DNA of 64,000 bases from a virus (IMGVR_UViG_3300038457_000086:3097-67096); one strand, 5' to 3'. Counted from the first letter of the stretch, positions 9,524 to 26,948 are shown. The notes: generated from the sequence alone by a model not told the origin. A program made the numbers and translations.

Positions 9524-9829
9524 TCACCCATCCTTGTCCTCCTTACCCGAACCGAGCCGCTCCTGCTCGGTGTCCCGCACGCCAAGAATGGACATCGCAA
9601 TCTCTCTAGCATCCTTCTTACGGCTAGGCCGAAGATCGTCCACGATGAGTTGCTGAATGCGCCAGATCTCGCCCTCGTCCGGTCGCTCGGTGTCCTCACG
9701 GCCGGCGCCGATCAGTTCATCAACGATGGCACCTTTCCGCGGCTCCTCACGGGCAGCGCGAGCAGCTTCTCTGATACCGAGCCGTGGACGGCCAGGCGTG
9801 TCGATGCGCGGGTGAAGGCGAAACCTCAC
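9524..9829 (-). CDS. Modular early protein (AAREEP-REDTERP-VRDTEQE joints)
   Basis: Three repeat joints; module shared with 24333..25235. Confidence 0.7.
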   Translation of the reverse strand: MRFRLHPRIDTPGRPRLGIREAARAAREEPRKGAIVDELIGAGREDTERPDEGEIWRIQQLIVDDLRPSRKKDAREIAMSILGVRDTEQERLGSGKEDKDG

Positions 9830-10485
9830 GCCGCGACCTTTGCTCGGGTCTCAGCCAGCAGGAAGCGGCCTATGTGTTCGGTGTATGCCGGCGGGATCGC
9901 CTCGCAGACCTCACGGACGTTCGACATCCAAGGCACCCCCATTTGCTCAGCCGCCGCTCGGACCCAGGCTTTCGAGTGGCGCCCGCCGTGGATCGACATG
10001 AACGGCGCCGCTGGGTTCGGTAGGTAGCCATTCCGAGCGCATCGCGCGACATGCCTTGTGTGCCTTGGCGTGTCGAGCTCGACACTGGACTCGAAGGCGC
10101 GATGTCGATAGATCCGGAGCCCGAACATCGGGCCACACAGCCGCACGGGATCGAGAAGCGGCGCCTGGGGGACGTTCTCGATCACATACGGCAGCCCGGT
10201 CTGTAGGAGTAGCGCGCGAACTGAGTCAACGAGGTCGGGGTACTCCTTGCCGTTGTAGGCATTCAGCGGCGAATAGGCCTGGCACGGCGGCGACGCGTGG
10301 ATCGCGTCGAAGTCGCAGATATCCCATGGCCCGTAATCATTGGCCAACGCATCGGTCTGCCAGAACTCAAACGGGTAGTTCGGCTGGGGCTGGTTGTCCA
10401 CGCCCACCACCTCGAAGCCTGCCCGGTGATAGCCCACCGCAGCGCCACCCGCGCCGCAGAAAAGATCGAGGAGGCGCGGTCTCAC
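9826..10485 (-). CDS. Short C5-cytosine DNA methyltransferase
   Basis: LDLFCGAGG (motif I), ASPPCQ (IV), IENV (VI), RHRAF, EAIPP (X). Confidence 0.88.
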   Translation of the reverse strand: MRPRLLDLFCGAGGAAVGYHRAGFEVVGVDNQPQPNYPFEFWQTDALANDYGPWDICDFDAIHASPPCQAYSPLNAYNGKEYPDLVDSVRALLLQTGLPYVIENVPQAPLLDPVRLCGPMFGLRIYRHRAFESSVELDTPRHTRHVARCARNGYLPNPAAPFMSIHGGRHSKAWVRAAAEQMGVPWMSNVREVCEAIPPAYTEHIGRFLLAETRAKVAA

Positions 10486-10694
10486 GCCGCGCTCCGGTAC
10501 CGCTCGCGCAGCTTGTCACTGACAACCTCGACCGGCTCATCATCAGCCCATCGTTCGGTCTCGCATAGCCCGCAAATCTCTAGGCCACCGCCAGCGGCGA
10601 TCCAAGAGTGCCCGGCGAAGCCGCACTCAATCCCGGTCGGCTCGTCGCTCCACCCGTCCCGCTCCGCCTCGTCGATACTCCGTGGCGCGCTCAT
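10482..10694 (-). CDS. Small Cys/His protein
   Basis: CGFAGHSW...CGLC; 4-nt overlaps at both ends. Confidence 0.55.
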   Translation of the reverse strand: MSAPRSIDEAERDGWSDEPTGIECGFAGHSWIAAGGGLEICGLCETERWADDEPVEVVSDKLRERYRSAA

Positions 10695-11776
10695 CGGGAC
10701 TGCTCCTGCTCGGTGTCCTGCGCGCCAGCAAGCGCGTTTTCGAGGACCGCACGGGAGTTGTCTCCCCAATAGCTGCGACCGTTAGTCTCCACGCACCACC
10801 TGCCCACGTCGTGCGGGTTCGACCACACCGTGACGCGACCCAGCGACGCGAGTCGATCGAGAAGGCCGTCCGGTCGCTCGGTGTCAACCTCTCGGTTCAG
10901 CGAAGCTGCAACCGAAGGTTCCTTGGCCTCACGGGCGCTTAGTAGCCGAATTGACTGAATGCGACCGCGCCCTGTACCCGCCCATTTTAGCTCTCGATCA
11001 ACGGCGTCTAGCTGGCGCTTGAGACTGGCACGCTCGCGGGCAATCCTCTGGGTCTCGGACAGCTCGCTGTATGGCCGCTTGTCCCGGTCGGGATCATAAT
11101 CAGCCTCACGGACGGCGACGAAAACAACACCTACCGCAGCGCGAGCTTCGTTGTAGGCGAACTCTCTCTGCCGATCAGACAGGTCCTCCCATCCCCGGCG
11201 AGAAGTCGTCGGCCCCGCTTCCCACATTGCTCGTGCGGCACGCCAGACCAGCGCAGCGTCAGGCTCACCTAAGTCCTGCGCCTCCTCACGGGCAGCGAGC
11301 TTGGCGCGGAGTTCGTCACGCTCCTTTTCCACAGTGCTGCGCTCAGCAATCCAAGCCTCACGGGCGGCGACACAGAGGCTCTTCAGGTGATTCCGCGCCC
11401 AAGCCTTCGCGTCAGCGGGCTCGCCGGGGAGCTTAGGCAGACCCTCCAGGAGAGCATCGATCCTGAGAAACTGCCCGTGCCGTGTCGGGCCTTTCCCCGG
11501 GCGTTCGTCGAGAGGCTCGTCACAGATCGCCTTGACCGCGGTGAGTAGATCGGAGGCGCGGCCGAAGAGATCGTGCTCTTCGGCTAGATGCTCCGTGATT
11601 CCCATCAGAATACTCGATGGCGGCTCCTCACGGACAGCGAGAGCGGCCCGGTAGTAATCGCGAGCCGCCATCCAACCCTTGTAATAAGCGCTGTGCGCGA
11701 TGGCTCCCCCGAAGGCACTAATCGGTGGGCGATCTTTCTCCAGCGCCTCGCGCTCTTGACCGTCGAGATCAGACAT
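10691..11776 (-). CDS. Modular early protein with eight repeat joints
   Basis: QEREALE, AVREEP, AAREA, AAREEA, AVREA, SAREA, REVDTERP, QDTEQE. Confidence 0.75.
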   Translation of the reverse strand: MSDLDGQEREALEKDRPPISAFGGAIAHSAYYKGWMAARDYYRAALAVREEPPSSILMGITEHLAEEHDLFGRASDLLTAVKAICDEPLDERPGKGPTRHGQFLRIDALLEGLPKLPGEPADAKAWARNHLKSLCVAAREAWIAERSTVEKERDELRAKLAAREEAQDLGEPDAALVWRAARAMWEAGPTTSRRGWEDLSDRQREFAYNEARAAVGVVFVAVREADYDPDRDKRPYSELSETQRIARERASLKRQLDAVDRELKWAGTGRGRIQSIRLLSAREAKEPSVAASLNREVDTERPDGLLDRLASLGRVTVWSNPHDVGRWCVETNGRSYWGDNSRAVLENALAGAQDTEQEQSR

Positions 11777-12026
11777 CGGCCAGCATCTCCTCTATCGAAG
11801 GCTGCTGAATCACGCAGACCCACTCGCGGTGCTTGTAAGCCAACTCCCAAGCCGCGTCGGGACCATTATCAAAGTACAGAACAAGCCCATCCGTGCCGTA
11901 CTGCTTGCGGCCGATAACCGTGCGCCAACAGCCTGGGCTCGGAGGATCGGTCAAAACCTTGTCGCCTTCGCGGACGTACGCCGCTTGCATTTTGACCTCA
12001 TGTCCTTGATCTTTGAGATCAGTCAT
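11769..12026 (-). CDS. Small SH3/KOW-like hypothetical protein
   Basis: AAYVREGDKV...WRTV pattern; GAGGAG RBS. Confidence 0.55.
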   Translation of the reverse strand: MTDLKDQGHEVKMQAAYVREGDKVLTDPPSPGCWRTVIGRKQYGTDGLVLYFDNGPDAAWELAYKHREWVCVIQQPSIEEMLADV

Positions 12027-12327
12027 CGCTCAGGCTCCTCTCACCACAACACACCCTCACCAACAAGACACGCTGACGGTCAGTAAGCGAACACACCTCG
12101 CGCCGCTCACCGATCCGCAACGTCCGGAGCGTCTTCGACACCCGCAGCTGACCCCACCGGCGCTGACACATCAACAAATCCCCAACACACAACGTCTGGC
12201 AGCACGAGTGGTCCATCGCCGCGGCCAAACTCATCCGGCCCATCGCGACATCACGCTTCACCCGAGCGCGCTCCAAACGCACCACGTTCGCTCTCTCGAG
12301 CGCATCCATGTACTGCGGCTGGCTCAT
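12019..12327 (-). CDS. Actinobacterial IHF (mIHF/sIHF, H2TH)-like nucleoid protein
   Basis: ALERANVVRLERARVKR...VGDLL...WGQLR...LRIGERREVCSLTDRQ matches the mIHF pattern. Confidence 0.75.
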   Translation of the reverse strand: MSQPQYMDALERANVVRLERARVKRDVAMGRMSLAAAMDHSCCQTLCVGDLLMCQRRWGQLRVSKTLRTLRIGERREVCSLTDRQRVLLVRVCCGERSLSDD

Positions 12328-13076
12328 GCGGCAACAGCCTCCGCGACGAGATCGGCCGCTGTTAGGAGTTCGATGAGCTTGTCCGCCGACGCCTTGTTAA
12401 ACGCAGCCCGCGCAGCCCGCGCATCCCGCGCAGCCCACGCAGCCCGCGCATCCCGCGCATCCCGCGCAGCCCACGCAGCCCGCGCAGCCCACGCAGCCCG
12501 CGCAGCCCGCGCAGCCCGCGCATCCCGCGCAGCCCGCGCATCCCACGCAGCCCGCGCATCCCACGCAGCCCACGCAGCCCACGCAGCCCACGCAAGCTTC
12601 TCCACCTCCTCGTCGCTAAGGGGGTTGCCCTCCACGTCGCGGGTATACCCGTCGGCCACGCGCCGGCAGATCGCCTTCACGTCCTCCCCCTCGGCGACGT
12701 TCACCAGGCCCCACTCCGGGTCGACCATCAGCCAGGCCGCGAACTGTGGCCACACCTTCGACAGGTCCGCACCGGGCTCGATCGCGCCCATGAACCGCTC
12801 CGGCCACGGGATCGCCAGCGGGTCAGGGAACGACTCGAAGATCCCGTCCTCCAAGTAGGCGAGCTGGGCTGGTATCCCGAACTCGCTCTCGTAGCGCATA
12901 TGGCCCCCGTTAAGGTCTTCCAGAACGCAACCCACCGCGCAGTACGTGGGCTTCTCGCCCGCTCGTACATAGGCGCCCTTCGCGATCTCATCCAGCAGGC
13001 GGTGCGCCTGGATCTTCCCCAGCACCTTGCTCTTCAACTCCGGTTTGCCGTGGTAGGCGATCAGCGTGTCGGACAT
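12324..13076 (-). CDS. Phage protein with C-terminal AWA/ARA/ARD low-complexity tract
   Basis: Globular N-terminus ([19 protein letters not shown]) followed by tripeptide repeats. Confidence 0.75.
12402..12594 (-). repeat. 9-bp tandem repeat GCG(C/T)GGG(C/A)T, about 21 units
   Basis: Directly visible array with two variable positions per unit. Confidence 0.95.
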
Positions 13077-14063: not shown

Positions 14064-14115
14064 TACGCTGTCGTGTTCATGGTCCCCGGCATCCAGCCGC
14101 GGTTTGGCGCGAGCA

Positions 14116-14678: not shown

Positions 14679-15199
14679 GCCGCCTCCGCCATTGGCCGGT
14701 ATTCCCGCTCGAGCCACGGCATCAGATCGAGCCATTCAGCGAGCCTCACCGTTTCAGACGGCAAGTCCTCGAAGGGAATGCGGAGCTTGCGCGAACGGTC
14801 AAGCATCCCGTGGTGACCGTCGCAGCCACAGAGGCCACCGCACCCCGGCACCCATGTCGCCGGCAGTTCGCACAGCTCCTGCAATGACCGTGGGAACGGC
14901 CCGCAGCCATACAGCCCCCACGTCTCTGCTAGCTCGGCGCGCCTCGGCCATATCTCACGACGCAGCACTTGTTTGCTTATCAGGTGGCAGCGCACGAGCT
15001 GCCCGTCGCACGGTACGCCCGGCGCGAACCGTGCGAGGAAACACACGGCGGTCACGCCTGGCAGATCACACGCATAGGTGTATTTGGCTGCGCGGGCACA
15101 CTTACGACGACGCAAGCCCTTCACGGTCTTCTCTCGCTTCACCGGCCTCTCGACTGGCAGAACGGTCGCCTTGGCCTCACTGGACGGTAAAGGGCTCAT
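14675..15199 (-). CDS. Cys/His-rich HNH-like nuclease
   Basis: C...PCDGQLVRCHLI...PGC...HHGMLD. Confidence 0.5.
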   Translation of the reverse strand: MSPLPSSEAKATVLPVERPVKREKTVKGLRRRKCARAAKYTYACDLPGVTAVCFLARFAPGVPCDGQLVRCHLISKQVLRREIWPRRAELAETWGLYGCGPFPRSLQELCELPATWVPGCGGLCGCDGHHGMLDRSRKLRIPFEDLPSETVRLAEWLDLMPWLEREYRPMAEAA

Positions 15200-15687
15200 A
15201 GTTCGTTCCCCTCAGCCACGGTGACGGCGACAGCTAGCGCAGCCCAACAGTCGCCACTCATGCCGTACAGCGGCCCCGGTGTGGCCTTTTTGCCGATCGC
15301 CTTGTCCTTGCCTGGGCCGTAGCGGTCGATCAGCGCCTGGCGGACGTTCGGGTCTTTCGCCCGCGTGCTGCCGCACAGGTGTAGCTTCACATTCTTGCGA
15401 TAGATGCACGTGTGCTCCGGTCGTGCGAACTTCGCCTGCCCCATCCTCCACCGCTCAATGAAACGACCGGCCCAGACGCACGTGTCGAACACTGTGGCGC
15501 CGACAGCCATGCCGTAGCTGGCCACCATCTCAATCGCCAGCAAGTTCTCCGACCTCGACGACATCTCGATCATCGTCAGCGCAGTCACGTTGTCGACCTT
15601 TTCCCACTCGACCGGCAGACGACTCTCGGTGTCGTAGATCAGCAACGCCGATTCCTCGTTGCCGGGATCGATCGCCAACAGCCTCAC
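15196..15687 (-). CDS. RuvC-like Holliday junction resolvase
   Basis: LLAIDPG, LAIE, VKLHLCG...AKD, DCWAALAVA. Confidence 0.8.
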   Translation of the reverse strand: MRLLAIDPGNEESALLIYDTESRLPVEWEKVDNVTALTMIEMSSRSENLLAIEMVASYGMAVGATVFDTCVWAGRFIERWRMGQAKFARPEHTCIYRKNVKLHLCGSTRAKDPNVRQALIDRYGPGKDKAIGKKATPGPLYGMSGDCWAALAVAVTVAEGNEL

Positions 15688-15844: not shown

Positions 15845-16234
15845 TCACGAAGACACCTCGGCGCGGGAAATCGGCGCGTAAATCGCTGGACACGTCGGAC
15901 CGTGCATCCCGCAGAAGGAAAGTCCTGGGCGTGTCCAGTCTTCAGCGGCGCACGCGGAGCAAGGACAATGGCGTCCGTGGGTGAGACGCGGCTCCTCACG
16001 GGCAGCGAGACGCGCCTCCGCCTGTTCAGCGCGAACCTTCCACTGAAGCCATGCGACACCGCACTCCGGACATGCGTCGTCGTCCGCATGGGACGGCTCC
16101 TCAGGGGCAGCGAGAGCGGCCCCGAAGCCATCGGCAAACTGCTCACTCACGAAGCCCACGATTTTCATTTCACCGCGAGCCTCGCAGCGCTTACGCCACG
16201 CCCCCTCCAGCGCCTCGCGCTCTTGACCGCCCAT
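15845..16234 (-). CDS. Modular early protein (QEREALE-AAPEEP-AAREEP) with Cys-rich modules
   Basis: Three joints; CPEC and CPCSAC modules. Confidence 0.65.
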   Translation of the reverse strand: MGGQEREALEGAWRKRCEARGEMKIVGFVSEQFADGFGAALAAPEEPSHADDDACPECGVAWLQWKVRAEQAEARLAAREEPRLTHGRHCPCSACAAEDWTRPGLSFCGMHGPTCPAIYAPISRAEVSS

Positions 16235-16470: not shown

Positions 16471-16543
16471 CAGGCACCCCGACCTTGCGCACGGAGCAGC
16501 TTGCGTCGGTGGCAGCGGATGGCGCCGACGATGCACTCACTAG

Positions 16544-16949: not shown

Positions 16950-17804
16950 TCATGCTGCCGCCTTCCTCGCCGCTTTGCGCTGGACCGCCATGTCGGCGTT
17001 GATCCGTTTCCGTGACTGGTGGACGGCCAAGAGGCCGAGGAAGTCGAGCTCGGTGGCCTCGCAATGCACGAGCTCAACCTCGCCGAGGTCGCTGATGCCG
17101 ACGATGATGATGTCGTCGACTGGCTCGATCTGGGACGGCTCAAGCGCCATCGCGTAGCCGCGGGTCTGATAGTGCGCCTGCTCGTAAATCCTTCCTTTGC
17201 CGGTCTTGTAGTCGATCAGGGTGCGACGGTTGTTGATGCGGCAGATCAGGTCAGGGCGTCCCGCGTAACGGTGCGCGGGTTCGCAGACGATCTTCTCGGC
17301 CTCTTCGGGCTCCGGATCCAGTAGTAGCCACGCCCGCGCAGCGCCCTTGACCCATGCGCGCCACTCCTCCGGATAGTCGGCCAGCTTCGGTGCCTCACCG
17401 GTGGTCGCGAGCTTCTCGAACGCGGAGTGGATCGCCCTCCCACGCTCAGCCCCCTCATCCCGCGCACCTTCGGCGCCCATCTTCTCCCGGCGCACCAGGT
17501 TGACCGCTTGCTCCGGGCTCACGATGATCACGTCGTCGAGGACCAGGCGCGCCAGGCCTTCGATGCCCTTCTGCTCTGCCCACGGGATCAGGGCCGGCTT
17601 CTCCAGCGTGCCCGTGATCGATGACACGGCCGTGAAGTCGTCGCCGTTCAGGGCGTAGCGGCGCCGGTCCTTCTTCGCCGGCTCCCCCTTCTTCGTGAGC
17701 CATTCGCCCGGGCCCAGATCTTCAAAACGGAGCGTGCCAAGACCCTCGATCTCGCGCTCGACGATCTCCCCGTCGACGACTAGGTCTATCGCCGTGGCGC
17801 TCAT
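16950..17804 (-). CDS. PD-(D/E)XK exonuclease (Cas4/RecB-like)
   Basis: VSSITG, RGRAIH, YAGRPDL, IDYKTG, QTRGY. Confidence 0.85.
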   Translation of the reverse strand: MSATAIDLVVDGEIVEREIEGLGTLRFEDLGPGEWLTKKGEPAKKDRRRYALNGDDFTAVSSITGTLEKPALIPWAEQKGIEGLARLVLDDVIIVSPEQAVNLVRREKMGAEGARDEGAERGRAIHSAFEKLATTGEAPKLADYPEEWRAWVKGAARAWLLLDPEPEEAEKIVCEPAHRYAGRPDLICRINNRRTLIDYKTGKGRIYEQAHYQTRGYAMALEPSQIEPVDDIIIVGISDLGEVELVHCEATELDFLGLLAVHQSRKRINADMAVQRKAARKAAA

Positions 17805-18049: not shown

Positions 18050-18927
18050 CGGGTCCTCACCGCCAGTCCGTCGACTTGCTCGATCGTGACGCCGGGGATC
18101 TCCCGCACACCGTCTTTGACGGCCGCGTTGATCAGGCGCTCGTCGACGATCAGGTACTTGCGCGGCACGAGGTCGGGGTCCACAACGGTGGCCTTCCACC
18201 GTTTCGTGCCCGAGGTCCCTGCAAGCTTCGTCCTGCCCACAGTGGTCGCCGGGGTGCTCTTCGCTGCGACCTCGGCCTGTGTTGCCTCGTCAGCCTCCCG
18301 GCGTGCCCGATCAGCACGCTCCTGGGCTTCCCGGCCGTCCTGACGCGCCTGTGCCTCTGCGGCGAGCAGCCGATACGCCTCGGAGCGTTCATCCGCGTTG
18401 CCGAGAGCGACTTCGAGGGCCTCGTCGCCCATGGCGGCGATCTCGCGGGCGCGCTCGTTCGCGGCCTCCCGCAGCTCGCGCTGACGTGCCTGCTCAGCCT
18501 CGCGAGCTTGACGCTCGATCCTCGCCGCCTCCTCCGCTCTCGCGCGGCGCTCAGCCTCGGCCTTCTCCTCCGCAGCACGGCGCTCGGCGTCGATGCGTGC
18601 CTGCTCCGCGGCGACACGCTCGGCCTCCTCGCGTTGGAACGCGATGACCTTGCCGCGCACGAGCTGGTCGGCCTCATCGAGCGGCGCTGCGGCTGATTTG
18701 AACCGGGCGTTGATCGCTTTGACATGGCTGTTCAGCGGGTCGACAAGGAACTTGCGTGCCGTCTCCCCTTTGCGCTTCGCCGTCGCGATCTCGCCGAGGA
18801 ACTCCGTCGCGGTCCGTGCCTGCTCGGGTGTGTTGACCTCAAGGGCCTGCGCACGCTGAACGACCGCGGAGACCTCCTCGGTGACCACGGCGACGGCCTC
18901 CTGATCGATGGTGGCCAGATCGCTCAT
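18046..18927 (-). CDS. Coiled-coil protein, Gp157/Gam-like
   Basis: Long EA/R coiled coil; C-terminal DPDLVPRKYLIVDERLINAAVKDGVREIPGV. Confidence 0.6.
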   Translation of the reverse strand: MSDLATIDQEAVAVVTEEVSAVVQRAQALEVNTPEQARTATEFLGEIATAKRKGETARKFLVDPLNSHVKAINARFKSAAAPLDEADQLVRGKVIAFQREEAERVAAEQARIDAERRAAEEKAEAERRARAEEAARIERQAREAEQARQRELREAANERAREIAAMGDEALEVALGNADERSEAYRLLAAEAQARQDGREAQERADRARREADEATQAEVAAKSTPATTVGRTKLAGTSGTKRWKATVVDPDLVPRKYLIVDERLINAAVKDGVREIPGVTIEQVDGLAVRTR

Positions 18928-19814
18928 GACGCCGCACCGGTCTTCGCAAGGTGCGCTCCGAGGGCCTGGCGGAACTCGTCAAGCAGTGCGGGCGTGAGAT
19001 CCTCTGTGCAGTCCACGCCGACCGAGGACAGGAGCATCGTCAGTGTGTTGTCGCTGATGCCCGCAGCGTTGAGCGCTTCGGTGAGCGCCGTGAGTTCCTC
19101 CTCGCTGATGCGCTCCGGCTCGTCTGTCGCTGCGCGGGTCTCAACGACGTCGGCCTCAACGTACTCCGTACCGTTCGATGCCGGCTCGGCGATCTCAACA
19201 GCGGTGGCTTGGACGATCTCGCCCTCGGCGTACACGCGGATGCCGTTCATCACATCCGGGCAGTACCAGGCGACCCCGTTGCTCATCGCCCGGGCGAAGA
19301 ACATGTTGCGGGGGTACTTGACGTAGTTCGACGGAGCGCCGCTTTTTGACGGTTTCGTCAGCAATGCAGCTTCGGCGTCGGCTTGAGTGAAGTCGGAGGT
19401 CCCGAACGCATCGGGCCACGGGAGCCACTGGCCGTGCTCATCCTTTCCGGGTGCGGTGCCGCGCCCAAACTCGATCGAGCATCCGTCAGCGTCGAGCTCC
19501 AGGACTCGGTAGTCGTACTTCCCCGAGGCCTTGACCTTCGACGCCTGCAGGTTTGCCGACATCTCGGGTTTCCCCTCGATGATGTGGATGTCCGTCATCG
19601 CCTGCGTGGCGCTGAGCCCGAGGTCCCGGCCGAAGATCAGCTTCGCGAACGCCTGATCGGCTTGGCGAGCATCCTTGAACATCCCGGACCTGGCGAGCCC
19701 GTTGCCGAGCCTGTACAGCATGTCTATCTCGCCGTTGGTGATCGGAGCGTCGATCTCCGTGGAATGCCGGTCGTCGAGCTCGGCTGGCTGTACGTCTATC
19801 GTCTGATCCATCAC
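18924..19814 (-). CDS. RecT-like ssDNA annealing recombinase
   Basis: LARSGMF...GRDLGLS..QAM..IHIIEGKP...YPRNMFFARAMS...CPDV. Confidence 0.75.
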   Translation of the reverse strand: MMDQTIDVQPAELDDRHSTEIDAPITNGEIDMLYRLGNGLARSGMFKDARQADQAFAKLIFGRDLGLSATQAMTDIHIIEGKPEMSANLQASKVKASGKYDYRVLELDADGCSIEFGRGTAPGKDEHGQWLPWPDAFGTSDFTQADAEAALLTKPSKSGAPSNYVKYPRNMFFARAMSNGVAWYCPDVMNGIRVYAEGEIVQATAVEIAEPASNGTEYVEADVVETRAATDEPERISEEELTALTEALNAAGISDNTLTMLLSSVGVDCTEDLTPALLDEFRQALGAHLAKTGAAS

Positions 19815-20044
19815 GAACCTCGATTCGTGGTCGCGCGCCCGGGTGTTCCAGCACCGCGGGCGCTATTTGTGTGTGAAAAGCCCGTTGCGCCGGACATGAC
19901 GCTCACCAAATGTCGGTTCACGCGCACATCGCTCTGCGCCTTACGCTCCTGCCGTTCCCCGAGCCGCTCACGGTCGAAGTCCTCGATCGTCGGCTGTTTG
20001 TTGCGCTTGCGAAGCCACTCGCTGAGTTTCTGCCCGTTCATCAC
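19811..20044 (-). CDS. Hypothetical protein
   Basis: Overlapping start and stop in the operon. Confidence 0.45.
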   Translation of the reverse strand: MMNGQKLSEWLRKRNKQPTIEDFDRERLGERQERKAQSDVRVNRHLVSVMSGATGFSHTNSARGAGTPGRATTNRGS

Positions 20045-20925
20045 TTGGGCTTCCGCTCAGCGTCTCGCACCATCTCACGGCAAGCGTCAGCGGCGTCCTC
20101 GTTGATCGGAGGATCGAGATCGGGCACCGGAAATACCTCGACCATCACCGCTGGTCCCTCCCCAGCCTTGTTGCTGAAGATCCGAGCGTGGAGCTTCGCC
20201 GCCCTTGCCACACCCTCCTCATCGCTGTGCGCGCCGTCTATGACATTCAGCCCCATGCCTGGCGGCTCACGACGCGCTAGATACAGCTCCCTCTCAGGCC
20301 CGTTGGCACGCTCGGTGACATCGACACACTCACCTATCGGAAGCGCCGGACCGTCCTCGATCTCAAAGAGTAGGTGCTTGCCGTGAAGCGTTTGCTTGAG
20401 AGTCCATCGCCTATGCCCCTCCGGTCGCTCGGTGTCCTCACGGGCAGCGAGGTCGTCACACACGGCGTCGATGATCTGCCCGTAGAGGTCAGCGTGTGCT
20501 TCCTCTGGCGACGGCTCACCGAAGGTGCCTGTCAAGACCTCCTCGGCCGCATGGAATGCTTGATCGCTCTGCAAGTCGTCGCGCGAGAATCGCGCGGGTA
20601 GGATGAACTCCTGCGGCTCCTCACGGGCAGCGAGGGCGGCCTCTGAGCAGGCGCCGTCGTGACCCTTAGGCAACTTGCAGGTAGGGTGGTGCGAGCCCTC
20701 GCCGCCGAAGCCGATCATGATGCGGCCACACCGATCGGCGTCTCCCGACGTGACCTCGCGGTCTTCGTTCACCCCCGGTGGCTCCTCACGGGCAGCGAGC
20801 GCGGCCTCGTACTTCTTGCGCCCGAGCCATCCACGCTCGAAACCTTTGATCCACTGAATCGGCAGCATCCGGCCATCACCAAAACGGGCCATCTCTGCCT
20901 CCAGCGCCTCGCGCTCTTGGGTCAT
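20041..20925 (-). CDS. Modular early protein (QEREALE-AAREEP-AAREEP-AAREDTERP)
   Basis: Four joints; one module duplicated at 22152-22345. Confidence 0.75.
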   Translation of the reverse strand: MTQEREALEAEMARFGDGRMLPIQWIKGFERGWLGRKKYEAALAAREEPPGVNEDREVTSGDADRCGRIMIGFGGEGSHHPTCKLPKGHDGACSEAALAAREEPQEFILPARFSRDDLQSDQAFHAAEEVLTGTFGEPSPEEAHADLYGQIIDAVCDDLAAREDTERPEGHRRWTLKQTLHGKHLLFEIEDGPALPIGECVDVTERANGPERELYLARREPPGMGLNVIDGAHSDEEGVARAAKLHARIFSNKAGEGPAVMVEVFPVPDLDPPINEDAADACREMVRDAERKPK

Positions 20926-20929
20926 GCGA

Positions 20930-21699: not shown

Positions 21700-21962
21700 T
21701 CACTCCCCTTTCCTGCTGGCTCAGGCCCCGCGTACCAACCTTCGACCTTGCGACGAACGCACCCACGGAACCGGTGGTAGTCGATCGTCTCCACATAGTC
21801 CGTGAGTTCGTCGCCGTTGCTTACAGCGTCCGAGACGTAGCGGTCGAGCCGGTCGAAGTCTTCCTCGGGCGTCCGGCCGTTTCCCTCGGCGTTGGCGACG
21901 AGCGCCTTGCTGGCCCGAACGGCCGCAAGAAGGATCGCGTCCAGCCGCTTGCTCTTGCTCAT
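21696..21962 (-). CDS. Hypothetical protein
   Basis: ATGA overlap, GAGG RBS. Confidence 0.6.
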   Translation of the reverse strand: MSKSKRLDAILLAAVRASKALVANAEGNGRTPEEDFDRLDRYVSDAVSNGDELTDYVETIDYHRFRGCVRRKVEGWYAGPEPAGKGSE

Positions 21963-22468
21963 GCCGCGTTCCTCTCGCTGTCGAACTCGAAGCCTTCGTA
22001 GGCCTCAAGCGCGCTGATAACCGTCGAGTGATCCGCGCCCGACTCTCCCGACAGCTCGCATGAACGCATGAAGGCAAGCGCCTCATGGAGATGGTGGGCC
22101 AACGCTCGGAGCCTCTCGGCTTCGCCCTCACGAGCAGCATCGCCCGCGCCTAGGTCGTCACAAACAGCGTCGATAATCTGCCCGTAGAGATCGGTGTGCG
22201 CCTCCTGTGGGGACGGGTCGCCGAAGGTGCCGGTCAGGATCTCCTCGGCCGCACGGAACGCCTCGTCGCTCTGCAAATCGTCGCGCGAGAATCGCGCGGG
22301 TAGGATGAACTCCTGCGGCTCCTCACGGGCAGCGAGGGCGGCCTCGGCTTCCTCGTAGATCAGCTTCATCGCGCCGCGCTGTTGCGAGCGCGCTTCATCC
22401 TTGTAGTGGCTCGCCCACGCACGGATTCGTCCCAGCGCATCGCGCTCTTGATCGTCGGGGTTAGTCAT
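21959..22468 (-). CDS. Modular early protein (QERDAL-AAREEP-AAREG)
   Basis: Contains the duplicate of module 20450-20643. Confidence 0.7.
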   Translation of the reverse strand: MTNPDDQERDALGRIRAWASHYKDEARSQQRGAMKLIYEEAEAALAAREEPQEFILPARFSRDDLQSDEAFRAAEEILTGTFGDPSPQEAHTDLYGQIIDAVCDDLGAGDAAREGEAERLRALAHHLHEALAFMRSCELSGESGADHSTVISALEAYEGFEFDSERNAA

Positions 22469-22547
22469 CACAGTCCCCCATCCCAGATGAGGAAGGCGAT
22501 GAACAGAGCCTCCAAGACGGCGACGATGCCGAGGAGCATTTCGCCGT

Positions 22548-23402
22548 TCACAGCGCATCTCTCAGCGTGCGGATTGCTACGGCAGCCACCTGTAGAACCT
22601 CAGCGCGGGTAGCCTCCCAATGCGTTGCCGCCCTCTCATCGCGCCATGCCTTCAGCGCCTCGGCGACCTCATCCTCCAGCGTCCCCAAGGCGAGCCGTGA
22701 CCGTCCTAGCATCGTGCCCTCGTAGCGCCCGTGCTTCTCGTCCTGTCGCTCGATCTCCCTTTCGAGGGCAAAGATCAACGGGTGGACGACGCGTTCCGTC
22801 AGTAGCTCATTGTCCCGCATGGCATCTGCCACTCGCTGGACCGCCGTCTGAATGCGCTCATGTCGTTCCACGTCGATAATCCAACTCGCCGCTTTGGCTA
22901 AATCAGCCCTGGCTTGCTGCAAGACTTTGATTAGCCACTCCGGTCGCTCCTCCGGTCGCTCGGTGTCCTCACGCGGGAGAGCAGCGACAATCAAGTGAGC
23001 CAGCCGCTCGGCCTCGTTGCTCGGGAAACCATCCCGTTCGAGAACACTCCGAATCCGCAAGACCATCCACGCAGCCTCGGGCATCTCGTACTCGTGCGTC
23101 TTAGCGGGTGGCTCCTCACGGATCGGGAAACGGCGACGTTTCTTCTCGTTTTCTAGACTCTCCTTGCATTTCTCCCACGCTCTGTCTGCGGCTGCGAGTT
23201 CGGCGCGCAGCCCCTCTAACTGGCGCTCCGCACTCTCAGCCTCCAGCCAGCGGCCGGGCATAGCCTCATGGCCACAGTTGCCGCACGACTGCCCCTCACC
23301 GTGATTCCCGCACGACAGGCACGTCCAGACGGTGATCTCCACCTGCGGCTCCTCACGGGCAGCGAGCAGCTTCGCCACGTTCTCAGCCTGCTCGTCAGTC
23401 AT
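22548..23402 (-). CDS. Modular early protein with Zn-ribbon module and C-terminal MazG-like NTP pyrophosphohydrolase domain
   Basis: AAREEP/IREEP/REDTERP joints; ERQDEKHG...LEDEVAEA...AEVLQVAAVA. Confidence 0.65.
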   Translation of the reverse strand: MTDEQAENVAKLLAAREEPQVEITVWTCLSCGNHGEGQSCGNCGHEAMPGRWLEAESAERQLEGLRAELAAADRAWEKCKESLENEKKRRRFPIREEPPAKTHEYEMPEAAWMVLRIRSVLERDGFPSNEAERLAHLIVAALPREDTERPEERPEWLIKVLQQARADLAKAASWIIDVERHERIQTAVQRVADAMRDNELLTERVVHPLIFALEREIERQDEKHGRYEGTMLGRSRLALGTLEDEVAEALKAWRDERAATHWEATRAEVLQVAAVAIRTLRDAL

Positions 23403-23561
23403 CGACAGCCCTTTCCACTCCAGTGATTGCTATGACATCCGTGTCCCACACATCGCGGCCCCCGTGGTCCTGGGCATTGGCCTTGATTTCAGCGTCGCTT
23501 TTGGATTTCGCCTCGATGTCGTAGGTGGCCTGCGTGCTCTCAACCACATGCACTCGATATC

Positions 23562-23864
23562 TCATCCCTCGTGCTCCTGCTCGGTGGCCCGCACGACCGG
23601 CCGCTCGATCGTGAGTTGGACGGCCTTGTCAATGTGCCCAACGAACATAGGCTCCCTATACGCCCAAGAACGGCCTTCGGACTCCCGTTGCGCATGTTCG
23701 TCAAGATCACGTTCTGCGGACGCCTGCGTAAAATGACCCCTCGCGTACCCGCAGTCGCAGCGAACGTGATAGAGCGGCACCGGCGGCAATTTGTTGTGCC
23801 TGCGCCCACCGCCCAGATCGGGCATCTGGCCCTTGAAGATCCTCGCGTTGATGATGTTGCTCAT
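23562..23864 (-). CDS. Small protein ending in the VRATEQE joint
   Basis: CDCG...H motif; terminal repeat variant at 23574. Confidence 0.55.
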   Translation of the reverse strand: MSNIINARIFKGQMPDLGGGRRHNKLPPVPLYHVRCDCGYARGHFTQASAERDLDEHAQRESEGRSWAYREPMFVGHIDKAVQLTIERPVVRATEQEHEG

Positions 23865-24340
23865 CGCTCCACCTTCGGTCGCCCGGTTTCCTCGCCCGCT
23901 AGGAACCGTTCGGCAGCCTCAATGTCGGTCGCCGCGTCGCTCTCGCTGACCTTACCGCGCACGACGCGCAACAGCCCCCCCACGATCGCCAGCGCAGGAT
24001 CACGTCGCTCGGTGTCCTCACGGGCGGCGGCCCATCGAAACACCCCGTCGCGCTCCTGAGGCGAATAGAGCACACCATCACCTTGCATCGCTTGGAGGTC
24101 GCGCACCACGCAGTAGGCCTCAATCGCAGGCACGTAGGCTGCACCGTCGATGACACGCTCGGCGTCCGCGATCCGGTTCGCGTGGTCAGCCCATGCCGCT
24201 ACCCCATCTGTCTGCGGCTCCTCACGGGCAGCGAGAGCGGCGCGGTAATAGTTACGTGCAGCGCGCCAAATGGCTCCACCATTTCCGAGTAATTCCGCTC
24301 TCTCTAATGCTTCGTACTCTTGTGGATCTAGATCAGGCAT
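23861..24340 (-). CDS. Modular early protein (QEYEALE-AAREEP-AAREDTER)
   Basis: Three joints. Confidence 0.7.
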   Translation of the reverse strand: MPDLDPQEYEALERAELLGNGGAIWRAARNYYRAALAAREEPQTDGVAAWADHANRIADAERVIDGAAYVPAIEAYCVVRDLQAMQGDGVLYSPQERDGVFRWAAAREDTERRDPALAIVGGLLRVVRGKVSESDAATDIEAAERFLAGEETGRPKVER

Positions 24341-25235
24341 CTGTCTCTAGGCGTCGCTGAATATGCCGGTCGGTGGTTCGCAGTGCGACAATCACGAGTG
24401 CCTGCTCGGCCTCACGGGCAGCGATCGTCGCTGTTGTAGCCCACATCGGCGCGTCCACATGAGCAAGGCCCTCCGTCGCCGAACCCGCACAATGAGCATC
24501 AACACCCCGCCGAGGCTGTATCTCCCCACAGGTAGTGCAAACCCAAACATCAAGCACCGTGCGCTCGGTGTCCTCTCGAACGGCGAGGGCATTAGAAAGT
24601 CGGTCCTCCAACTCGTCGACTTCGCGACCTGCCTCTAGTGCCCGCTCGCGCTGATCGTCGCGTTCCGCCGTAATACGCTCAATCGTGGATTGTGGCTCCT
24701 CACGGGCAGCGAGAGCGGCTTCTCTGATTACGAGCCGCAGATCCCTAGCCTCTCGGGACGACGCGGCCCGCACGCCGAGGACAGCCATCGCAATCTCTCG
24801 CGCATCTCTCTGGCGGCTGGGGCGTAGATCCTTCACGAGAAGCTGCTGTACACGCCAGATTTCATCCTCGTCCGGTCGCTCGGTGTCCTCACAGGCAGCG
24901 GCAGATGAGCCGATAAGCGCCTCTTTCGCCTTCTCGATCAGGCGCTCCAGGGTGATCGTCCGACGCACGCTCGCGGCGATCGGCTTATCCAGCGCCGCCA
25001 CGAACAATGCGAAGCTATGCGCGCGATTGTTCTGCTCCCACTCCTCGCGGTCAAGGACCACTTGATCAAGGCGAATATTCGCAGCGAGAGCGGCACGGTA
25101 GCCAGCGGCGAAATCATCGCCAGGCGACTGAGTCCCGGGCAGGTGCTTGCTGAAGTGCTCTCGCCGGGCGGCTCTCAGCTCTTTCTGCCTCACCTTCCAC
25201 GGCACCAGCGCCTCGCGCTCTTGATCGGTGCTCAT
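24333..25235 (-). CDS. Modular early protein (QEREAL-EDTERP-AAREEP-REDTER-AAREA)
   Basis: Five joints; module shared with 9524..9829. Confidence 0.7.
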   Translation of the reverse strand: MSTDQEREALVPWKVRQKELRAARREHFSKHLPGTQSPGDDFAAGYRAALAANIRLDQVVLDREEWEQNNRAHSFALFVAALDKPIAASVRRTITLERLIEKAKEALIGSSAAACEDTERPDEDEIWRVQQLLVKDLRPSRQRDAREIAMAVLGVRAASSREARDLRLVIREAALAAREEPQSTIERITAERDDQRERALEAGREVDELEDRLSNALAVREDTERTVLDVWVCTTCGEIQPRRGVDAHCAGSATEGLAHVDAPMWATTATIAAREAEQALVIVALRTTDRHIQRRLETDA

Positions 25236-25341
25236 AAGATTTCCTGCCAGATCGTCACACACAACACGACCGTGAACGTGAGCATTAGCGCGCAGACACA
25301 TCCGAGAACAACGGCGGCGACCACTTTTCCGATTGCGTCAC

Positions 25342-25956
25342 TCATGGCTCGGGCTCCTGCTCGGTGTCCCGCACGACCGGCGACATATCGCGTGAGGAGG
25401 CTGCGACGGCGCGATAAAGGCGCTGCATGGCGGCTTCGAGGGTGCGATCTTGCAGCAGGGACTTGGCGCGACGATGGAAGTAGTGGTCCAGCACGCCATT
25501 GGCGGCCTCCCGCAATCCCTGGTTGTCTTGGTCTGTGTCCTCACCTGCGAAGGCGTCACGAACCTCCTGAGCACACGCTTGAAGATCGGCAAGGTCGTCG
25601 TCGGAAGTGCGCGTGGCCGGTCGCTCGATGTCCCGCATGGCCCCAGTGGGGAGCTTCCTGCCATACCGCTGGAGAACACGCTCGGTCCGTTCAACCAGTC
25701 GCTCTTGCTCGCCCACTGACATCTCTACGTCTCGCAAGCCCGCACGGAACAGCCCTTCGATGATCTCTAGTGTCTCCGTGTCCGGTCGCTCGGTGTCCTC
25801 ACGGGCAGCGGCCAACTCCCGATAGCGTCTGTTAGCGGCGTCTCGTTCTAGTTCGGCCTCGTGCAGTCGCTCTAGGTATTTCCCAGCCTTCTCCATCCAG
25901 TCGGCACGCTCTCTTGCCAGCTCCGGTGCCAGCTCGCGTTCGGCCATGTCGCTCAC
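25342..25956 (-). CDS. Modular early protein (AAREDTERP...VRDTEQE)
   Basis: Joints at 25781, 25617, 25535, 25354. Confidence 0.7.
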   Translation of the reverse strand: MSDMAERELAPELARERADWMEKAGKYLERLHEAELERDAANRRYRELAAAREDTERPDTETLEIIEGLFRAGLRDVEMSVGEQERLVERTERVLQRYGRKLPTGAMRDIERPATRTSDDDLADLQACAQEVRDAFAGEDTDQDNQGLREAANGVLDHYFHRRAKSLLQDRTLEAAMQRLYRAVAASSRDMSPVVRDTEQEPEP

Positions 25957-26288
25957 GACGACACCAGTCCGTCCATCGCGCTCACATAGGCCGGGTAATC
26001 GTCCAGCTCCATGCGAACACGCTCCGCTAGGCCCTCGGCGATCTCGGCGTTTTGATCGCGCTCCTCTATCGCAAGGCGCAGTTCGCGTCGGAGAGATTCG
26101 TAGCTATCGGTTTTGCCTTCCACGAAACGTGAGCACTTGCAGTCCTTGTTCGCTTCGCATTCGCCCTGGCCCTGCTGACGCTCGACGTCTGACTGGTTGA
26201 TCCGTAGCTCGCTGGCGTCGAGGATCGCGTTGTGCCAGTGCGCTGTATGCCCGCAGGTGCAGACGCGGGCGTGTAGGTCGGCGCTCAT
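25953..26288 (-). CDS. Cys/His-rich small protein
   Basis: CTCGH...H...C...CKCSRF. Confidence 0.6.
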   Translation of the reverse strand: MSADLHARVCTCGHTAHWHNAILDASELRINQSDVERQQGQGECEANKDCKCSRFVEGKTDSYESLRRELRLAIEERDQNAEIAEGLAERVRMELDDYPAYVSAMDGLVSS

Positions 26289-26494
26289 CGGACGCCTCTC
26301 CGGTCCGGCATCCCCACGCCATCCCTAAAGACAGCGTGAGTGCGCGCCCCACAAGCAGGGGTCTCCCGTAGTTCCGCGAGCGCGTCGCGTTCCTGCTCAT
26401 CGCCGATCCGGGCTGCCGCACACAAAGCCAGCGCGAGTAGCAACGGCACGACCACCACAGACAACGCGGCGAAGATCAGGGCGACCGTGACCAT
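26285..26494 (-). CDS. Small single-TM membrane protein
   Basis: Hydrophobic N-terminus, LALALCAAARIGD. Confidence 0.55.
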   Translation of the reverse strand: MVTVALIFAALSVVVVPLLLALALCAAARIGDEQERDALAELRETPACGARTHAVFRDGVGMPDRRGVR

Positions 26495-26793
26495 TAGCGC
26501 CGCCCCTCGCCTTCGGCCGTATCCAGGCGGTCCGCGTGCTGCCACGGAGACACGTCCCACGGGTGCCGGTCAAACACCCGGGCCTCGGCGAGCATCTCCC
26601 CATAGTGCGCCTGCGCGCGCTCCCCCTCGCCGACCTCAAGAGCATGAGCGAGCTTCTGCAAAGCGATAGCCCTCGGGCTCCCCCCACGCGGATGCTCACT
26701 CCGTACCCCCAGCGCGCCGAAGCATTCGTCGGCGAACCTGACAGTCGCGGCCAGCGCCCGCGCCTCGTTCTCCTCCAGCTCCAAGCGGATCAC
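26494..26793 (-). CDS. Hypothetical protein
   Basis: GTGA overlap. Confidence 0.5.
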   Translation of the reverse strand: MIRLELEENEARALAATVRFADECFGALGVRSEHPRGGSPRAIALQKLAHALEVGEGERAQAHYGEMLAEARVFDRHPWDVSPWQHADRLDTAEGEGRR

Positions 26794-26948
26794 GCCTTCA
26801 CGCGCCCGCCGCATTTCGGGCAGCAAGCCCGCTCCCGCTGCTCCCGAGTATCCGCAGTCCGGTACCCAGACCAGCCACACTGCGCTGTCCGCTGGCAACG
26901 CACATACTCACGCCGCAGCAGGACGGGCGGCTCCTCTCGGGCGCTCAC
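26790..26948 (-). CDS. Small Zn-ribbon protein starting SAREEP
   Basis: C...CGWSG...CPKCGG; repeat variant at the start. Confidence 0.5.
   Translation of the reverse strand: MSAREEPPVLLRREYVRCQRTAQCGWSGYRTADTREQRERACCPKCGGRVKA

Follow-up and report, generated by a model that had tools for sequence, protein, structure and literature searches.

Codon-locked, in-frame DNA repeats as probable crossover points between modules of mosaic phage proteins

Introduction

The promoter-early stem-loop (PeSL) cassettes of T4-type phages are characterized, in the passages that describe them (Arbiol et al. 2010, PMC2839356; Comeau et al. 2014, PMC4122927), by short repeated DNA motifs scattered over a variable region of non-essential genes, where the insertions, deletions, and replacements of close relatives arise by recombination between the motifs. 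According to the same passages, PeSLs are intergenic, combine a sigma-70-like promoter with a terminator hairpin, and move whole genes. In the T-even gp38 adhesin, conserved glycine-rich motifs lie between hypervariable segments (Trojet et al. 2011, PMC3157838, in the part on which we draw). Such short conserved in-frame motifs flank readily exchanged variable segments and, as far as that account goes, form the structural core of one family with one function (i.e., host recognition). The His-box motifs of gene 37 are said to be of the same kind.

In Gram-positive surface proteins, interdomain sequences named "Recer" are reportedly conserved as DNA between domain-coding modules and are said to have been proposed as an aid to in-frame shuffling without introns; that case concerns bacterial cell-wall proteins, one linker type, and few genes. 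The start-associated sequences of Cluster K mycobacteriophages reportedly consist of a conserved motif, including a Shine-Dalgarno sequence, just upstream of gene starts. The stoperators of Cluster A mycobacteriophages are asymmetric repressor-bound sites of 13 to 14 bp in one orientation relative to transcription, and their placement is frame-independent and mostly between genes.

Here we describe a locus in a 64,000-nucleotide stretch of DNA from an uncultured peat phage (IMGVR_UViG_3300038457_000086:3097-67096; referred to as the window), where small modules with no relation to one another are linked into about ten proteins, presumably accessory ones, by four kinds of short connecting sequence, which we call joints. 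As at PeSLs, the motif marks where relatives begin to differ and where they agree again. Unlike PeSLs as described in the cited passages, joints, which occur in a phage unrelated to T4, are translated and frame-locked, fall into four ordered classes, and move protein parts; mini-circles have been shown for PeSLs, and the runs examined here were covered as assembled contigs. PeSL-type intergenic units were rejected as an identity for the joints (20 of 20 copies of the core repeat lie inside open reading frames [ORFs], in frame), as was a PeSL-type promoter plus terminator stem-loop (the joints are read through as codons, and eight folds were no stabler than shuffles). Like Recer sequences, joints are in-frame inter-module sequences conserved as DNA, with module exchange at the linker, but they number about 35 in the gene array of a phage, fall into four classes, and are kept across several phage lineages. 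Recer membership proper (i.e., Gram-positive cell-wall-anchored binding proteins) was rejected for these phage proteins, which match 0 Pfam families. In contrast to gp38 and gene 37, the joints separate folds that are unrelated to one another and are spread over about ten different genes. The likeness to start-associated sequences concerns the terminal (T) joint only, which differs in being coding sequence (RDTEQE) at the end of the upstream gene. Joints share a single orientation with stoperators, a weak likeness because all genes lie on one strand; stoperator-type placement was rejected, all copies being intragenic and in one frame.

Results and discussion

The core repeat is the 14-mer CCTCACGGGCAGCG. 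The window contains 12 exact copies, all on the plus strand (9745, 11284, 15994, 20436, 20619, 20784, 22321, 23351, 24220, 24410, 24698, and 25797), at the positions where the initial annotation had placed them, while none were expected; dinucleotide shuffles contained a mean of 0.00 copies, and 0 of 100 reached 12. The entire 67-kb virus record (G+C content, 63%) contains the same 12 exact copies and no others. With up to two mismatches allowed, the minus strand has 20 coding-sense copies, each of which falls within a stop-free ORF of that strand (108 to 375 codons) and reads GCT GCC CGT GAG (i.e., AARE or a one-residue variant), and none is intergenic; the single orientation, intragenic position, and single frame claimed earlier were thus confirmed for this set. 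Two more copies at this threshold (40308 and 45548) are on the other strand from the genes. Because all genes of the window are on the minus strand, the orientation of the repeat says little.

The joints form four classes, namely, S (QEREAL), E (AAREEP), D (AAREDTERP), and T (RDTEQE). A peptide-level scan of the whole window located S (start) joints at 11738, 16205, 20899, 22430, 24302, and 25203, with a diverged one at 26378; AAREEP-type E joints at 9740, 11279, 11621, 15989, 16094, 20614, 20779, 22316, 23109, 23346, 24215, and 24693; AAREDTERP-type D joints at 9683, 10871, 20425, 22956, 24005, 24561, 24876, and 25786; and terminal T joints at 9560, 10703, 23574, and 25354. The scan recovered the classes that had been proposed, and all pattern matches fall in 9560-26945, with none elsewhere in the window, in agreement with the claim that the structural genes hold no full copy. 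The classes are ordered as had been noted, although not loosely; S before E before D before T is kept in 63 of 65 successive joint pairs. Non-allelic joint copies share exact identities of 17 to 30 bp.

All joint-bearing genes lie on the minus strand. At the low-coordinate end, g9524 (101 aa; 9524..9829) carries joints E (9740-9757), D (9683-9706), and T (9560-9577), and its module at 9574-9707 is duplicated at 24767-24900 (79% identity over 134 bp). The next, g10691 (361 aa; 10691..11776), has S (11738-11758), two E joints (11621-11638 and 11279-11296), AARE variants at 11351-11368 and 11099-11116, a D-like joint (10871-10891), and T (10703-10720), beyond which the next gene starts at an ATGA. 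In g15845 (129 aa; 15845..16234), S (16205-16225) precedes an AAPEEP variant of E (16094-16111) and a second E (15989-16006). The four modules of g20041 (294 aa; 20041..20925, ATG at 20925), designated N1, M1, M2, and M3, accompany joints S (20899-20919), E (20779-20796 and 20614-20631), and D (20425-20448). A second M2 copy is found in g21959 (169 aa; 21959..22468; S 22430-22450, E 22316-22333, and a degenerate AARE at 22121-22138), where 22152-22345 matches 20450-20643 at 89% over 194 bp. The 68 bp adjoining and including the joint are identical, with 21 differences in the remaining 126 bp; this tract looks like a conversion tract.

The gene g22548 (284 aa; 22548..23402) has two E joints (23346-23363 and 23109-23126) and D (22956-22979); one of its modules is zinc-ribbon-like, and the C-terminal one gave a weak lead toward MazG. 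In g23562 (100 aa; 23562..23864), the C-terminal T joint (23574-23591) leads into an ATGA overlap and an ORF of 56 codons (23395-23565). Joints S (24302-24322), E (24215-24232), and D (24005-24028) occur in g23861 (159 aa; 23861..24340), while g24333 (300 aa; 24333..25235, ATG at 25235) contains S (25203-25223), D (24876-24899 and 24561-24584), E (24693-24710), and an AARE variant (24405-24422). Finally, g25342 (204 aa; 25342..25956) has D (25786-25809) and T (25354-25371); after the latter come an ATGA overlap and a hydrophobic ORF of 37 codons (25232-25345), the stop of which overlaps the ATG of g24333.

When the joints were masked, matches were confined to two pairs of modules within the region and one weak pair involving 63554-63901, and the description of the modules as mostly unrelated was therefore upheld by this comparison. 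None of the ten joint-bearing proteins matched a Pfam family, and one had a weak PHROG match to a family of unknown function, so no benefit can be named for them. The "MazG-like" modules of the initial annotation were not borne out beyond a weak lead (scores below 0.9; 0 Pfam families). An AlphaFold model was uninformative (pLDDT, 35.9).

The joint DNA is codon-locked, silent positions included. In a peptide-defined set of 34 joints from eight sources, Arg is encoded by CGT in 33 of 34 joints (genome usage, 15.0%), Thr by ACC in 15 of 15 (36%), and Asp by GAC in 15 of 15 (66%). Nine of 11 AARE peptides are spelled GCT GCC CGT GAG, against an expectation of 0.5% each, and CAA encodes the Gln of the S joint in six of seven window copies. 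The two residues preceding the joint Arg vary (AA, AV, AT, TT, AG, PI, LP, LA, and VA). As had been proposed, synonymous sites in this set are therefore conserved and do not vary freely.

The same joints are conserved across phages that are otherwise unalignable in their "early-region" DNA, a transposon-type repeat excepted. In five other virus records (G001 to G005), the 14-mer occurs 3, 8, 0, 1, and 1 times exactly and 4, 8, 4, 3, and 1 times at up to one mismatch (reversed control, 0); 21 of 22 copies read as joints. Comparison of the window with these loci yielded only five alignments of at least 45 bp, with none in joint-bearing genes. The short matches are joints (20 to 37 bp; 90 to 100% identity, mostly 93 to 100%), apart from a transposon-type inverted repeat, while an orthologous gene pair has a DNA identity of only 71%.

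Natural mosaic boundaries coincide with the joints. Searches with four window proteins returned 31 non-self database proteins, many of which are mosaics of window modules at 90 to 100% identity, with identical modules before or behind different partners; a fixed module order, which would have spoken against module exchange, was thus not seen. For example, P0002 consists of g20041 residues 1-168 through AAREDTERP followed by a different C module, and P0007 has a different N module, then M2 (100%), and then the C module of P0002. The N module of g21959 precedes a new module and M3 in P0004, and P0019, P0020, and P0021 carry three different fronts on a 100% identical g22548 C module. P0029 joins g23861 residues 1-112 to the start of g20041 M3, whereas the g23861 N module is joined to a g9524 module in P0035 and to modules seen in G002 in P0033. 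Internal ends of shared blocks lie within three residues of a joint in 23 of 31 cases and within four in 27 of 31; the ends are not independent, as several matches share one boundary, and 16 of 22 distinct boundaries lie within three residues. None of 200,000 permutations reached 23/31 or 16/22, although three of the four protein searches were seeded by shared words that include joints. The remaining eight ends are 4, 4, 4, 4, 9, 22, 41, and 120 residues away.

Breakpoints at joints were also found in DNA. Contigs L134 and L140 differ by the presence or absence of a 476-bp cassette bounded by two joints, with flanks 98 to 99% identical. In L134, two D joints are separated by 476 bp and belong to different genes read in different frames; L140 shows a single hybrid joint and a single fused gene whose reading frame is still open. 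The crossover lies inside a shared 17 to 18 nt and left no scar. Cassettes are also replaced in two variant peat contigs, in each case at a joint or next to one and in whole codons. In one (run X14 record 13), 24030-24409 is replaced by 88 nt between two AARE cores (88 + 14 = 102 nt, i.e., 34 codons, with the frame kept), a fusion that also occurs as protein P0031; in the other (record 12), 173 nt stand in place of 22292-22431, which changes the length by 33 nt, and one end coincides with the S joint. Differences away from joints exist as well (21470-21557, replaced in two runs, and a 433-bp indel between L140 and L137 without a joint at its ends). All variant proteins and contigs are metagenome assemblies, and no recombination event was observed directly.

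Three recombination genes, all on the minus strand, sit mid-region among the joint-bearing genes. A RecT-like single-strand annealing protein (18924..19814; phrog_4171, E = 1.4e-09; phrog_561, E = 1.7e-08; no Pfam match) may catalyze the exchanges, with a PD-(D/E)XK exonuclease (16950..17804; PF12705, E = 6.3e-07; phrog_298, E = 1.4e-26) as a candidate partner. The third encodes a Holliday-junction resolvase-like protein (15196..15687; phrog_1770, E = 6.1e-16).

We consider it probable that the joints are short in-frame DNA repeats acting as preferred crossover points for homologous recombination. Crossovers would occur between different genes of one phage and also between co-infecting relatives, and a crossover at two joints of the same class would combine the upstream part of one protein with the downstream part of another. 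Since the joints have a single frame and a fixed class order (S behind the start codon, E and D successively in the interior, and T at the stop), frame and architecture would survive such an event, and modules of about 20 to 135 residues could be swapped, deleted, duplicated, or fused. The joint peptide probably serves as a neutral linker, in which the end of an alanine-rich stretch is followed by an acidic proline-containing one. The RecT-like protein, exonuclease, and resolvase of the phage would carry out the exchanges, the codon lock may be maintained by recombination itself (i.e., conversion) or by selection for recombination, and the products would be accessory proteins with useful variety. 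The initial annotation had likewise proposed in-frame recombination linkers permitting module exchange, and module order, breakpoints, and synonymous sites all came out in favor of that proposal. Exact tracts of 17 to 30 nt are short for efficient homologous recombination, which counts against the crossover reading.

It is conceivable, albeit doubtful, that S, E, D, and T, as position-specific and frame-locked linkers, are a true assembly standard, maintained without change across a phage lineage because dedicated machinery can thereby make new multi-module accessory proteins at a high rate during infection. Such machinery might comprise the phage annealing protein, exonuclease, and resolvase, or an unrecognized nuclease cutting the 14-nt core. 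If so, the locus would be a natural combinatorial protein generator, beyond a mere by-product of homology.

The T joint doubles as the ribosome-binding site of the next gene and includes an ATGA stop/start overlap. AGGAG followed after 8 to 9 nt by ATGA is present in three of the four window T joints (at 25368, 23588, and 10717) and likewise in L135, L139, and L137. This is the arrangement of translational coupling, in which a Shine-Dalgarno sequence stands 5 to 10 nt before a start that overlaps the upstream stop, and the downstream ORFs at 23395-23565 and 25232-25345 were confirmed; this class therefore has a plain translational role too.

This role, found in three of four window copies and in several relatives, lends some weight to the unlikely alternative that the codons are locked for the sake of some other function of the DNA or RNA and that recombination at the joints is incidental. 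Such a function might be that of a binding site for a phage regulator (cf. stoperators), a ribosome-pausing or processing signal on the GAGGAG/GAGGAC core, or a small RNA hairpin. The core is asymmetric, 14 nt long, in one orientation, and contains a Shine-Dalgarno-like GAGGA; a repressor-like HTH protein is encoded at 27299-27562; and four of six E joints form a 4- to 6-bp hairpin over the core. However, the 20 coding-sense copies are all intra-ORF in one frame, and internal joints have no start codon at a fixed distance downstream. The hairpin folds no better than shuffles (z-scores of -1.28 to +1.26 for eight joints), is missing from D joints without a preceding CTC, and would be made stronger by CGC instead of the locked CGT.

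A further reading, that joints matter as peptides only (e.g., as linker, docking motif, or phage protease site in polyproteins) and that random illegitimate recombination plus selection for working proteins left module boundaries at these linkers, seems quite improbable. The peptide is indeed conserved and placed between modules, and modules work in many contexts, as illustrated by the ITEYVTTREW module, terminal in P0002 and internal in P0020. No connection of the joints with a protease was seen. This reading leaves unexplained the locked rare codons (CGT, 33/34; S-joint CAA, 6/7) and the 93 to 100% joint DNA identity where orthologous genes are at 71%; furthermore, the L134/L140 crossover within 17 to 18 nt is scarless, and the genes lie in the replication/recombination region, not among virion genes.

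There is very little likelihood that the joints are leftovers from recent duplication of one ancestral gene, i.e., a paralogue framework without a role in recombination. The common S-E-D-T architecture and the two modules duplicated inside the genome would fit such an origin, but the stretches separating joints show no relationship even at the protein level, in contrast to the identical DNA of the joints themselves; phages without other alignable "early-region" DNA have retained these joints, and near-identical modules are found in different contexts. That the mosaics are artefacts, short-read assemblers having joined related phages at repeated joints, is scarcely credible: the variants do all come from metagenome assemblies, and many peat-contig "joints" with only 21 to 38 nt on one side are mere repeat cross-matches, but no exact repeat between different window joints is longer than 30 nt, which is less than k = 31, the M2 duplicate being the one case with a longer identical tract (68 nt), the 17 to 18 nt shared by L134 and L140 are too short for assembler collapse, P0007 occurs on three contigs (jgi, lgn, and ena), P0021 on four, and P0009 on three, P0031 and the X14 contig have the same fusion, and variants carry modules missing from the window.

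At the high-coordinate end of the region, a minus-strand ORF (26285..26560) contains the diverged S-type joint, QERDAL (26378-26395), which is written in different codons; it is doubtful that this ORF belongs to the joint system. Near 26928-26945, a copy reading SAREEP differs at 4 of 18 bases and sits in a doubtful 67-codon ORF.

In-frame joints of four ordered classes in the early region

The window comprises 64,000 of the 67,096 bases of the record, has a G+C content of ~63%, and carries its long open reading frames (ORFs) on the minus strand. The 14-mer CCTCACGGGCAGCG, which forms the core of the short in-frame linkers here called joints, occurs in 12 exact copies, every one on the + strand (expectation from 100 shuffles, 0.00). 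All copies listed in the initial annotation were recovered within a few bases of their reported positions. With up to two mismatches allowed, 20 coding-strand copies were detected. All 20 lie inside stop-free ORFs (108 to 375 codons) and encode Ala-Ala-Arg-Glu or a one-residue variant, in agreement with the earlier claim of one shared reading frame (AARE).

A peptide-pattern scan of the entire window separated the joints into S (QEREAL, a few codons past the start; seven copies, one diverged), E (AAREEP and close variants; 12 copies), D (AAREDTER[P]; eight copies), and T (RDTEQE, a few codons ahead of the stop; four copies) classes, with four further AARE variants that have other continuations. 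All matches fall within 9560 to 26945, and the structural genes carry no joint, as had been stated. In a self-BLAST of the window, the repeats appeared as islands of 21 to 44 bp (66 pairs), and the longest exact tract between two different joints was 30 nt. Longer module duplications numbered only two (i.e., 9574-9707 versus 24767-24900, 79% identity; 20450-20643 versus 22152-22345, 89%). Among nine window proteins and 31 database proteins, a sample biased toward relatives of four proteins, successive joints formed the pairs S-E (19), E-D (22), D-T (10), E-E (8), D-D (3), S-D (1), and D-E (2). Thus, the order S, E, D, T is kept in 63 of the 65 pairs, which bears out the proposal of ordered classes.

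Module exchange at the joints in related proteins

Protein searches with four joint-bearing window proteins (word-seeded for g20041, g24333, and g22548; exhaustive for g23861) yielded 35 proteins. Four of them were those of the window itself, and mosaics were frequent among the other 31. The architecture of g20041 is S-N1-[E]-M1-[E]-M2-[D]-M3, where N1 and M1 to M3 are its modules. The database protein P0002 matches g20041 exactly up to and including [D] (168 residues), beyond which its C module differs, while P0007 starts with a different N module, continues with [E]-M2-[D] (74 residues, 100%), and ends with the C module of P0002. P0009 combines the N module of P0007 with the part of g21959 from M2' (i.e., a second M2 copy) to the C module. 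P0004 carries the first 50 residues of g21959 (100%), an E-type joint, a new 30-residue module, and [D]-M3 (135 residues, 100%). Three unrelated fronts precede a 100% identical C module of g22548 (133 to 141 residues) in P0019, P0020, and P0021, with distances of 0, 0, and 1 residues between the switch and the D joint. P0029 has residues 1 to 112 of g23861 and, past [D], the start of M3 of g20041, an exchange that involves joints separated by 3.6 kb in the window. Fusions of the g23861 N module with a module of g9524, another joint-bearing ORF (P0035), and with modules found in G002, another virus record with joints (P0033), were also present. The module ITEYVTTREW... stands at the end of P0002, ahead of a T joint, but in P0020 it lies inside the protein with an E joint on each side.

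Ungapped blocks (≥30 residues, ≥90% identity) between the 31 database proteins and nine window proteins numbered 23, with 31 internal ends. Of these ends, 23 were within 3 residues of a joint and 27 within 4; the others were 9, 22, 41, and 120 residues away. As distinct boundaries, 16 of 22 were within 3 residues. Positions this close to a joint make up 14 to 43% of each protein, and neither boundary count was reached in any of 200,000 random draws, where the block ends are partly repeats of one boundary across matches and three of the searches were seeded by shared words. The expectation that relatives would differ in module order at identical joints was thereby confirmed, and these mosaics argue that relatives exchange modules at the joints.

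Cassette differences in DNA

Two loci from different phage records, L134 and L140, are 98 to 99% identical on both sides of a difference. In L134, two adjacent genes each contain a D joint; these joints are 476 bp apart and in different absolute frames, and the interval holds the end of the first gene, an ATGA overlap, and the S joint of the second. Only one joint is present in L140, where the upstream flank is that of the first L134 joint and the downstream flank that of the second, and the one fused gene retains an open frame. The tract common to both loci at the crossover is 17 to 18 nt, which is too short for assembler collapse.

Twenty listed runs, which come from 15 studies and carry the label peat metagenome throughout, contained DNA of the phage, and contigs from four of these runs were compared with window positions 8500 to 27600. 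In record 13 of run X14, 88 other nucleotides replace 24030-24409, and the ends coincide with the edges of the AARE cores at 24016-24029 and 24410-24423. Since 88 + 14 = 102 nt (i.e., 34 codons), two window genes become one. The exhaustive protein search independently recovered this fusion as P0031, in which two AARE motifs enclose a module of 30 residues. In record 12 of the same run, 173 nt stand in place of the 140 nt of 22292-22431, so that the contig gains 11 codons; one of the ends is at the S joint. Junction variants, which the initial annotation had proposed to seek in metagenomic data, are thus represented among assembled contigs by these two records and the 476-bp case. Many apparent breakpoints in the run table match over only 21 to 38 nt on one side; these are repeat cross-matches and were not counted. 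Contigs from runs X8 and X11 contain joins going back to 19975. Additionally, 71 other nucleotides take the place of an 86-nt stretch (21470-21557, in ORF 21181-21699) in two peat runs (X8 and X14), a difference of 5 codons; this variable patch has no joint at its bounds.

Fixed codon spelling of the joints

Joints were redefined by peptide only (i.e., Arg-Glu preceded by any two residues and followed by Glu-Pro or Asp-Thr-Glu, with no stop in the surrounding coding-strand stretch); the window and seven loci from other phages together contained 34 such joints. Arg is encoded by CGT in 33 of these 34 joints, whereas genes of the window use this codon for 15.0% of their Arg residues. All 15 D-class joints have GAC for Asp (usage, 66%) and ACC for Thr (usage, 36%). 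In a crude gene set, 9 of the 11 AARE peptides are spelled GCT GCC CGT GAG, where codon usage predicts 0.5% for each, and the minor codon CAA (usage, 21%) encodes the Gln of the S joint in six of the seven window copies. The two residues preceding Arg vary freely in the 34-joint set, and a few codons off the joint, conservation at all three codon positions is at background. The DNA spelling of the joints is therefore locked, and the conservation of synonymous positions reported earlier is upheld. Homogenisation, selection for exchange, or a further DNA or RNA function may maintain the lock.

Further roles of the joints

The T joint contains AGGAG, which is followed after a spacer of 8 to 9 nt by ATGA, a stop/start overlap. 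This arrangement is present at three window positions (25368, 23588, and 10717) and in three further phages. Since small ORFs are present downstream, the T joint is also a translational-coupling junction. Between a T and an S joint, a strongly hydrophobic ORF of 37 codons (25232-25345, minus strand) has ATGA overlaps on both sides and may encode a small membrane peptide. An RNA hairpin over the core can form in four of six E joints (4 to 6 bp), but most D joints lack it, CGC would pair more strongly than the locked CGT, and folding was not better than that of shuffles (z, -1.28 to +1.26); we reject it as a general feature. A role of internal joints as ribosome-binding sites was rejected because start codons lie at no fixed distance after them.

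Distribution in other phages

Scanning viral contigs with two joint-derived 20-mers identified six other virus contigs; the bare 14-mer gave at least 119 single chance matches and was uninformative as a probe. Five whole records contained 3, 8, 0, 1, and 1 exact copies of the 14-mer (4, 8, 4, 3, and 1 at ≤1 mismatch), confined to one strand per record, with none for the reversed control. The same peptide classes were read from 21 of 22 copies at ≤2 mismatches. Only five alignments of ≥45 bp were found between the window and the loci of these phages, none of them within joint-bearing genes; one represents an orthologous gene with 71% DNA identity. In a short-word search of the early region, the matches consisted of the joints (20 to 37 bp; 90 to 100% identity, mostly 93 to 100%) plus the 24-bp inverted repeat that a transposon-type element carries. 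Compared with the 71% of the ortholog, these values indicate that the joints are kept letter for letter while silent sites elsewhere are saturated.

Neither a prophage with the joint system nor a host was found by scanning one genome per prokaryote species with a D-joint 20-mer; the 15 single matches included none with a second joint, and several were in an unrelated conserved Streptomyces gene. Among 50,697 records of isolated phages, no megablast match to 9500-27000 or 40000-60000 and no tblastn match to g20041 were detected. The portal protein (60176-62098) has at most 28% identity to that of any isolated phage, with large Bacillus phages as the best matches. The lineage has no cultured relative in this collection. 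A metagenome scan with the RecT-like protein of the window returned 61 loci (≤71% identity), none with a joint, and only eight relatives of g23861 emerged when 1.84 billion representative proteins were searched in full with HMMER.

Candidate recombination machinery

The module-exchange interpretation is supported, and for it we infer both a mechanism and a benefit. The joint-rich region includes genes for a RecT-like annealing protein (18924-19814), a PD-(D/E)XK exonuclease (16950-17804), and a Holliday-junction resolvase-like protein (15196-15687), which together could carry out exchange at the joints. Phage annealing proteins that recombine short and diverged homologies and drive mosaicism have been described (De Paepe et al. 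2014, PMC3945230; PMC5499656). The duplicate of M2 contains a perfectly identical 68-bp tract abutting the E joint (20576-20643 versus 22278-22345), the rest being ~83% identical; this looks like a recent conversion tract that began at the joint. Lineage-specific changes common to two E joints of G003, another virus record, are as expected of concerted evolution. The rapid reshuffling of the ~10 orphan multi-module proteins suggests that they have an arms-race role.

Comparison with known modular systems

Literature searches on the joint peptides and on conserved in-frame linkers for domain shuffling in phages gave no description of such a system. The nearest published idea is that of the "Recer" interdomain sequences, which reportedly occur in Gram-positive surface proteins. 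The PeSL cassettes of T4-type phages act in a similar way but are intergenic units of promoter and terminator (PMC2839356). In gp38, a single adhesin, interchangeable segments are bordered by glycine-rich motifs (PMC3157838), whereas ~35 joints are spread over ten or eleven genes of a replication and recombination region. This extent is new, as are the four ordered classes, the conservation of joints over a lineage with no cultured member, and the direct correspondence of protein mosaics with DNA cassettes.

A long-standing question in the modular theory of phage evolution is whether recombination is guided by short conserved linkers or whether mosaic genomes result from random joining and subsequent selection. 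The joints make this question testable. Given their identical silent and rare-codon spelling, single frame and order, survival amid unalignable DNA, and match to the boundaries of exchanged modules, the locus provides one of the clearest natural cases for guided exchange within genes. The joints also provide a natural template for modular in-frame protein assembly.

Protein families and neighboring features

No Pfam family was detected in 10 joint-bearing proteins, and PHROGs gave one weak family of unknown function. Protein atlas leads for the C module of g22548 all scored <0.9 and were to MazG-like families. The AlphaFold model of g20041, made without an alignment, was not usable (pLDDT, 35.9).

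A 24- to 25-bp terminal inverted repeat of a small transposon-type element is located at 8414-8437, 21155-21178, 63298-63322, and 63894-63920 and also occurs in three other phage records (L136, L139, and L140). It is the sole early-region DNA besides the joints that these phages have in common. The stretch 8414-8671 is 89% identical to L139 10403-10660, and L140 differs from L137, another phage locus, by a 3.3-kb insertion with two of the inverted repeats. An ORF near the element (63554-63901) has 47% identity over 32 residues with M1 of g20041 (residues 147 to 178). Two DNA methyltransferase genes (8894-9511, MT-A70 type; 9826-10485, C5-cytosine type) flank the first joint-bearing ORF. Finally, ORF 12324-13076 contains an in-frame tandem array (12401-12594) of Ala/Arg/Asp/Trp repeats, with copies 87 to 93% alike, that is unrelated to the joints.
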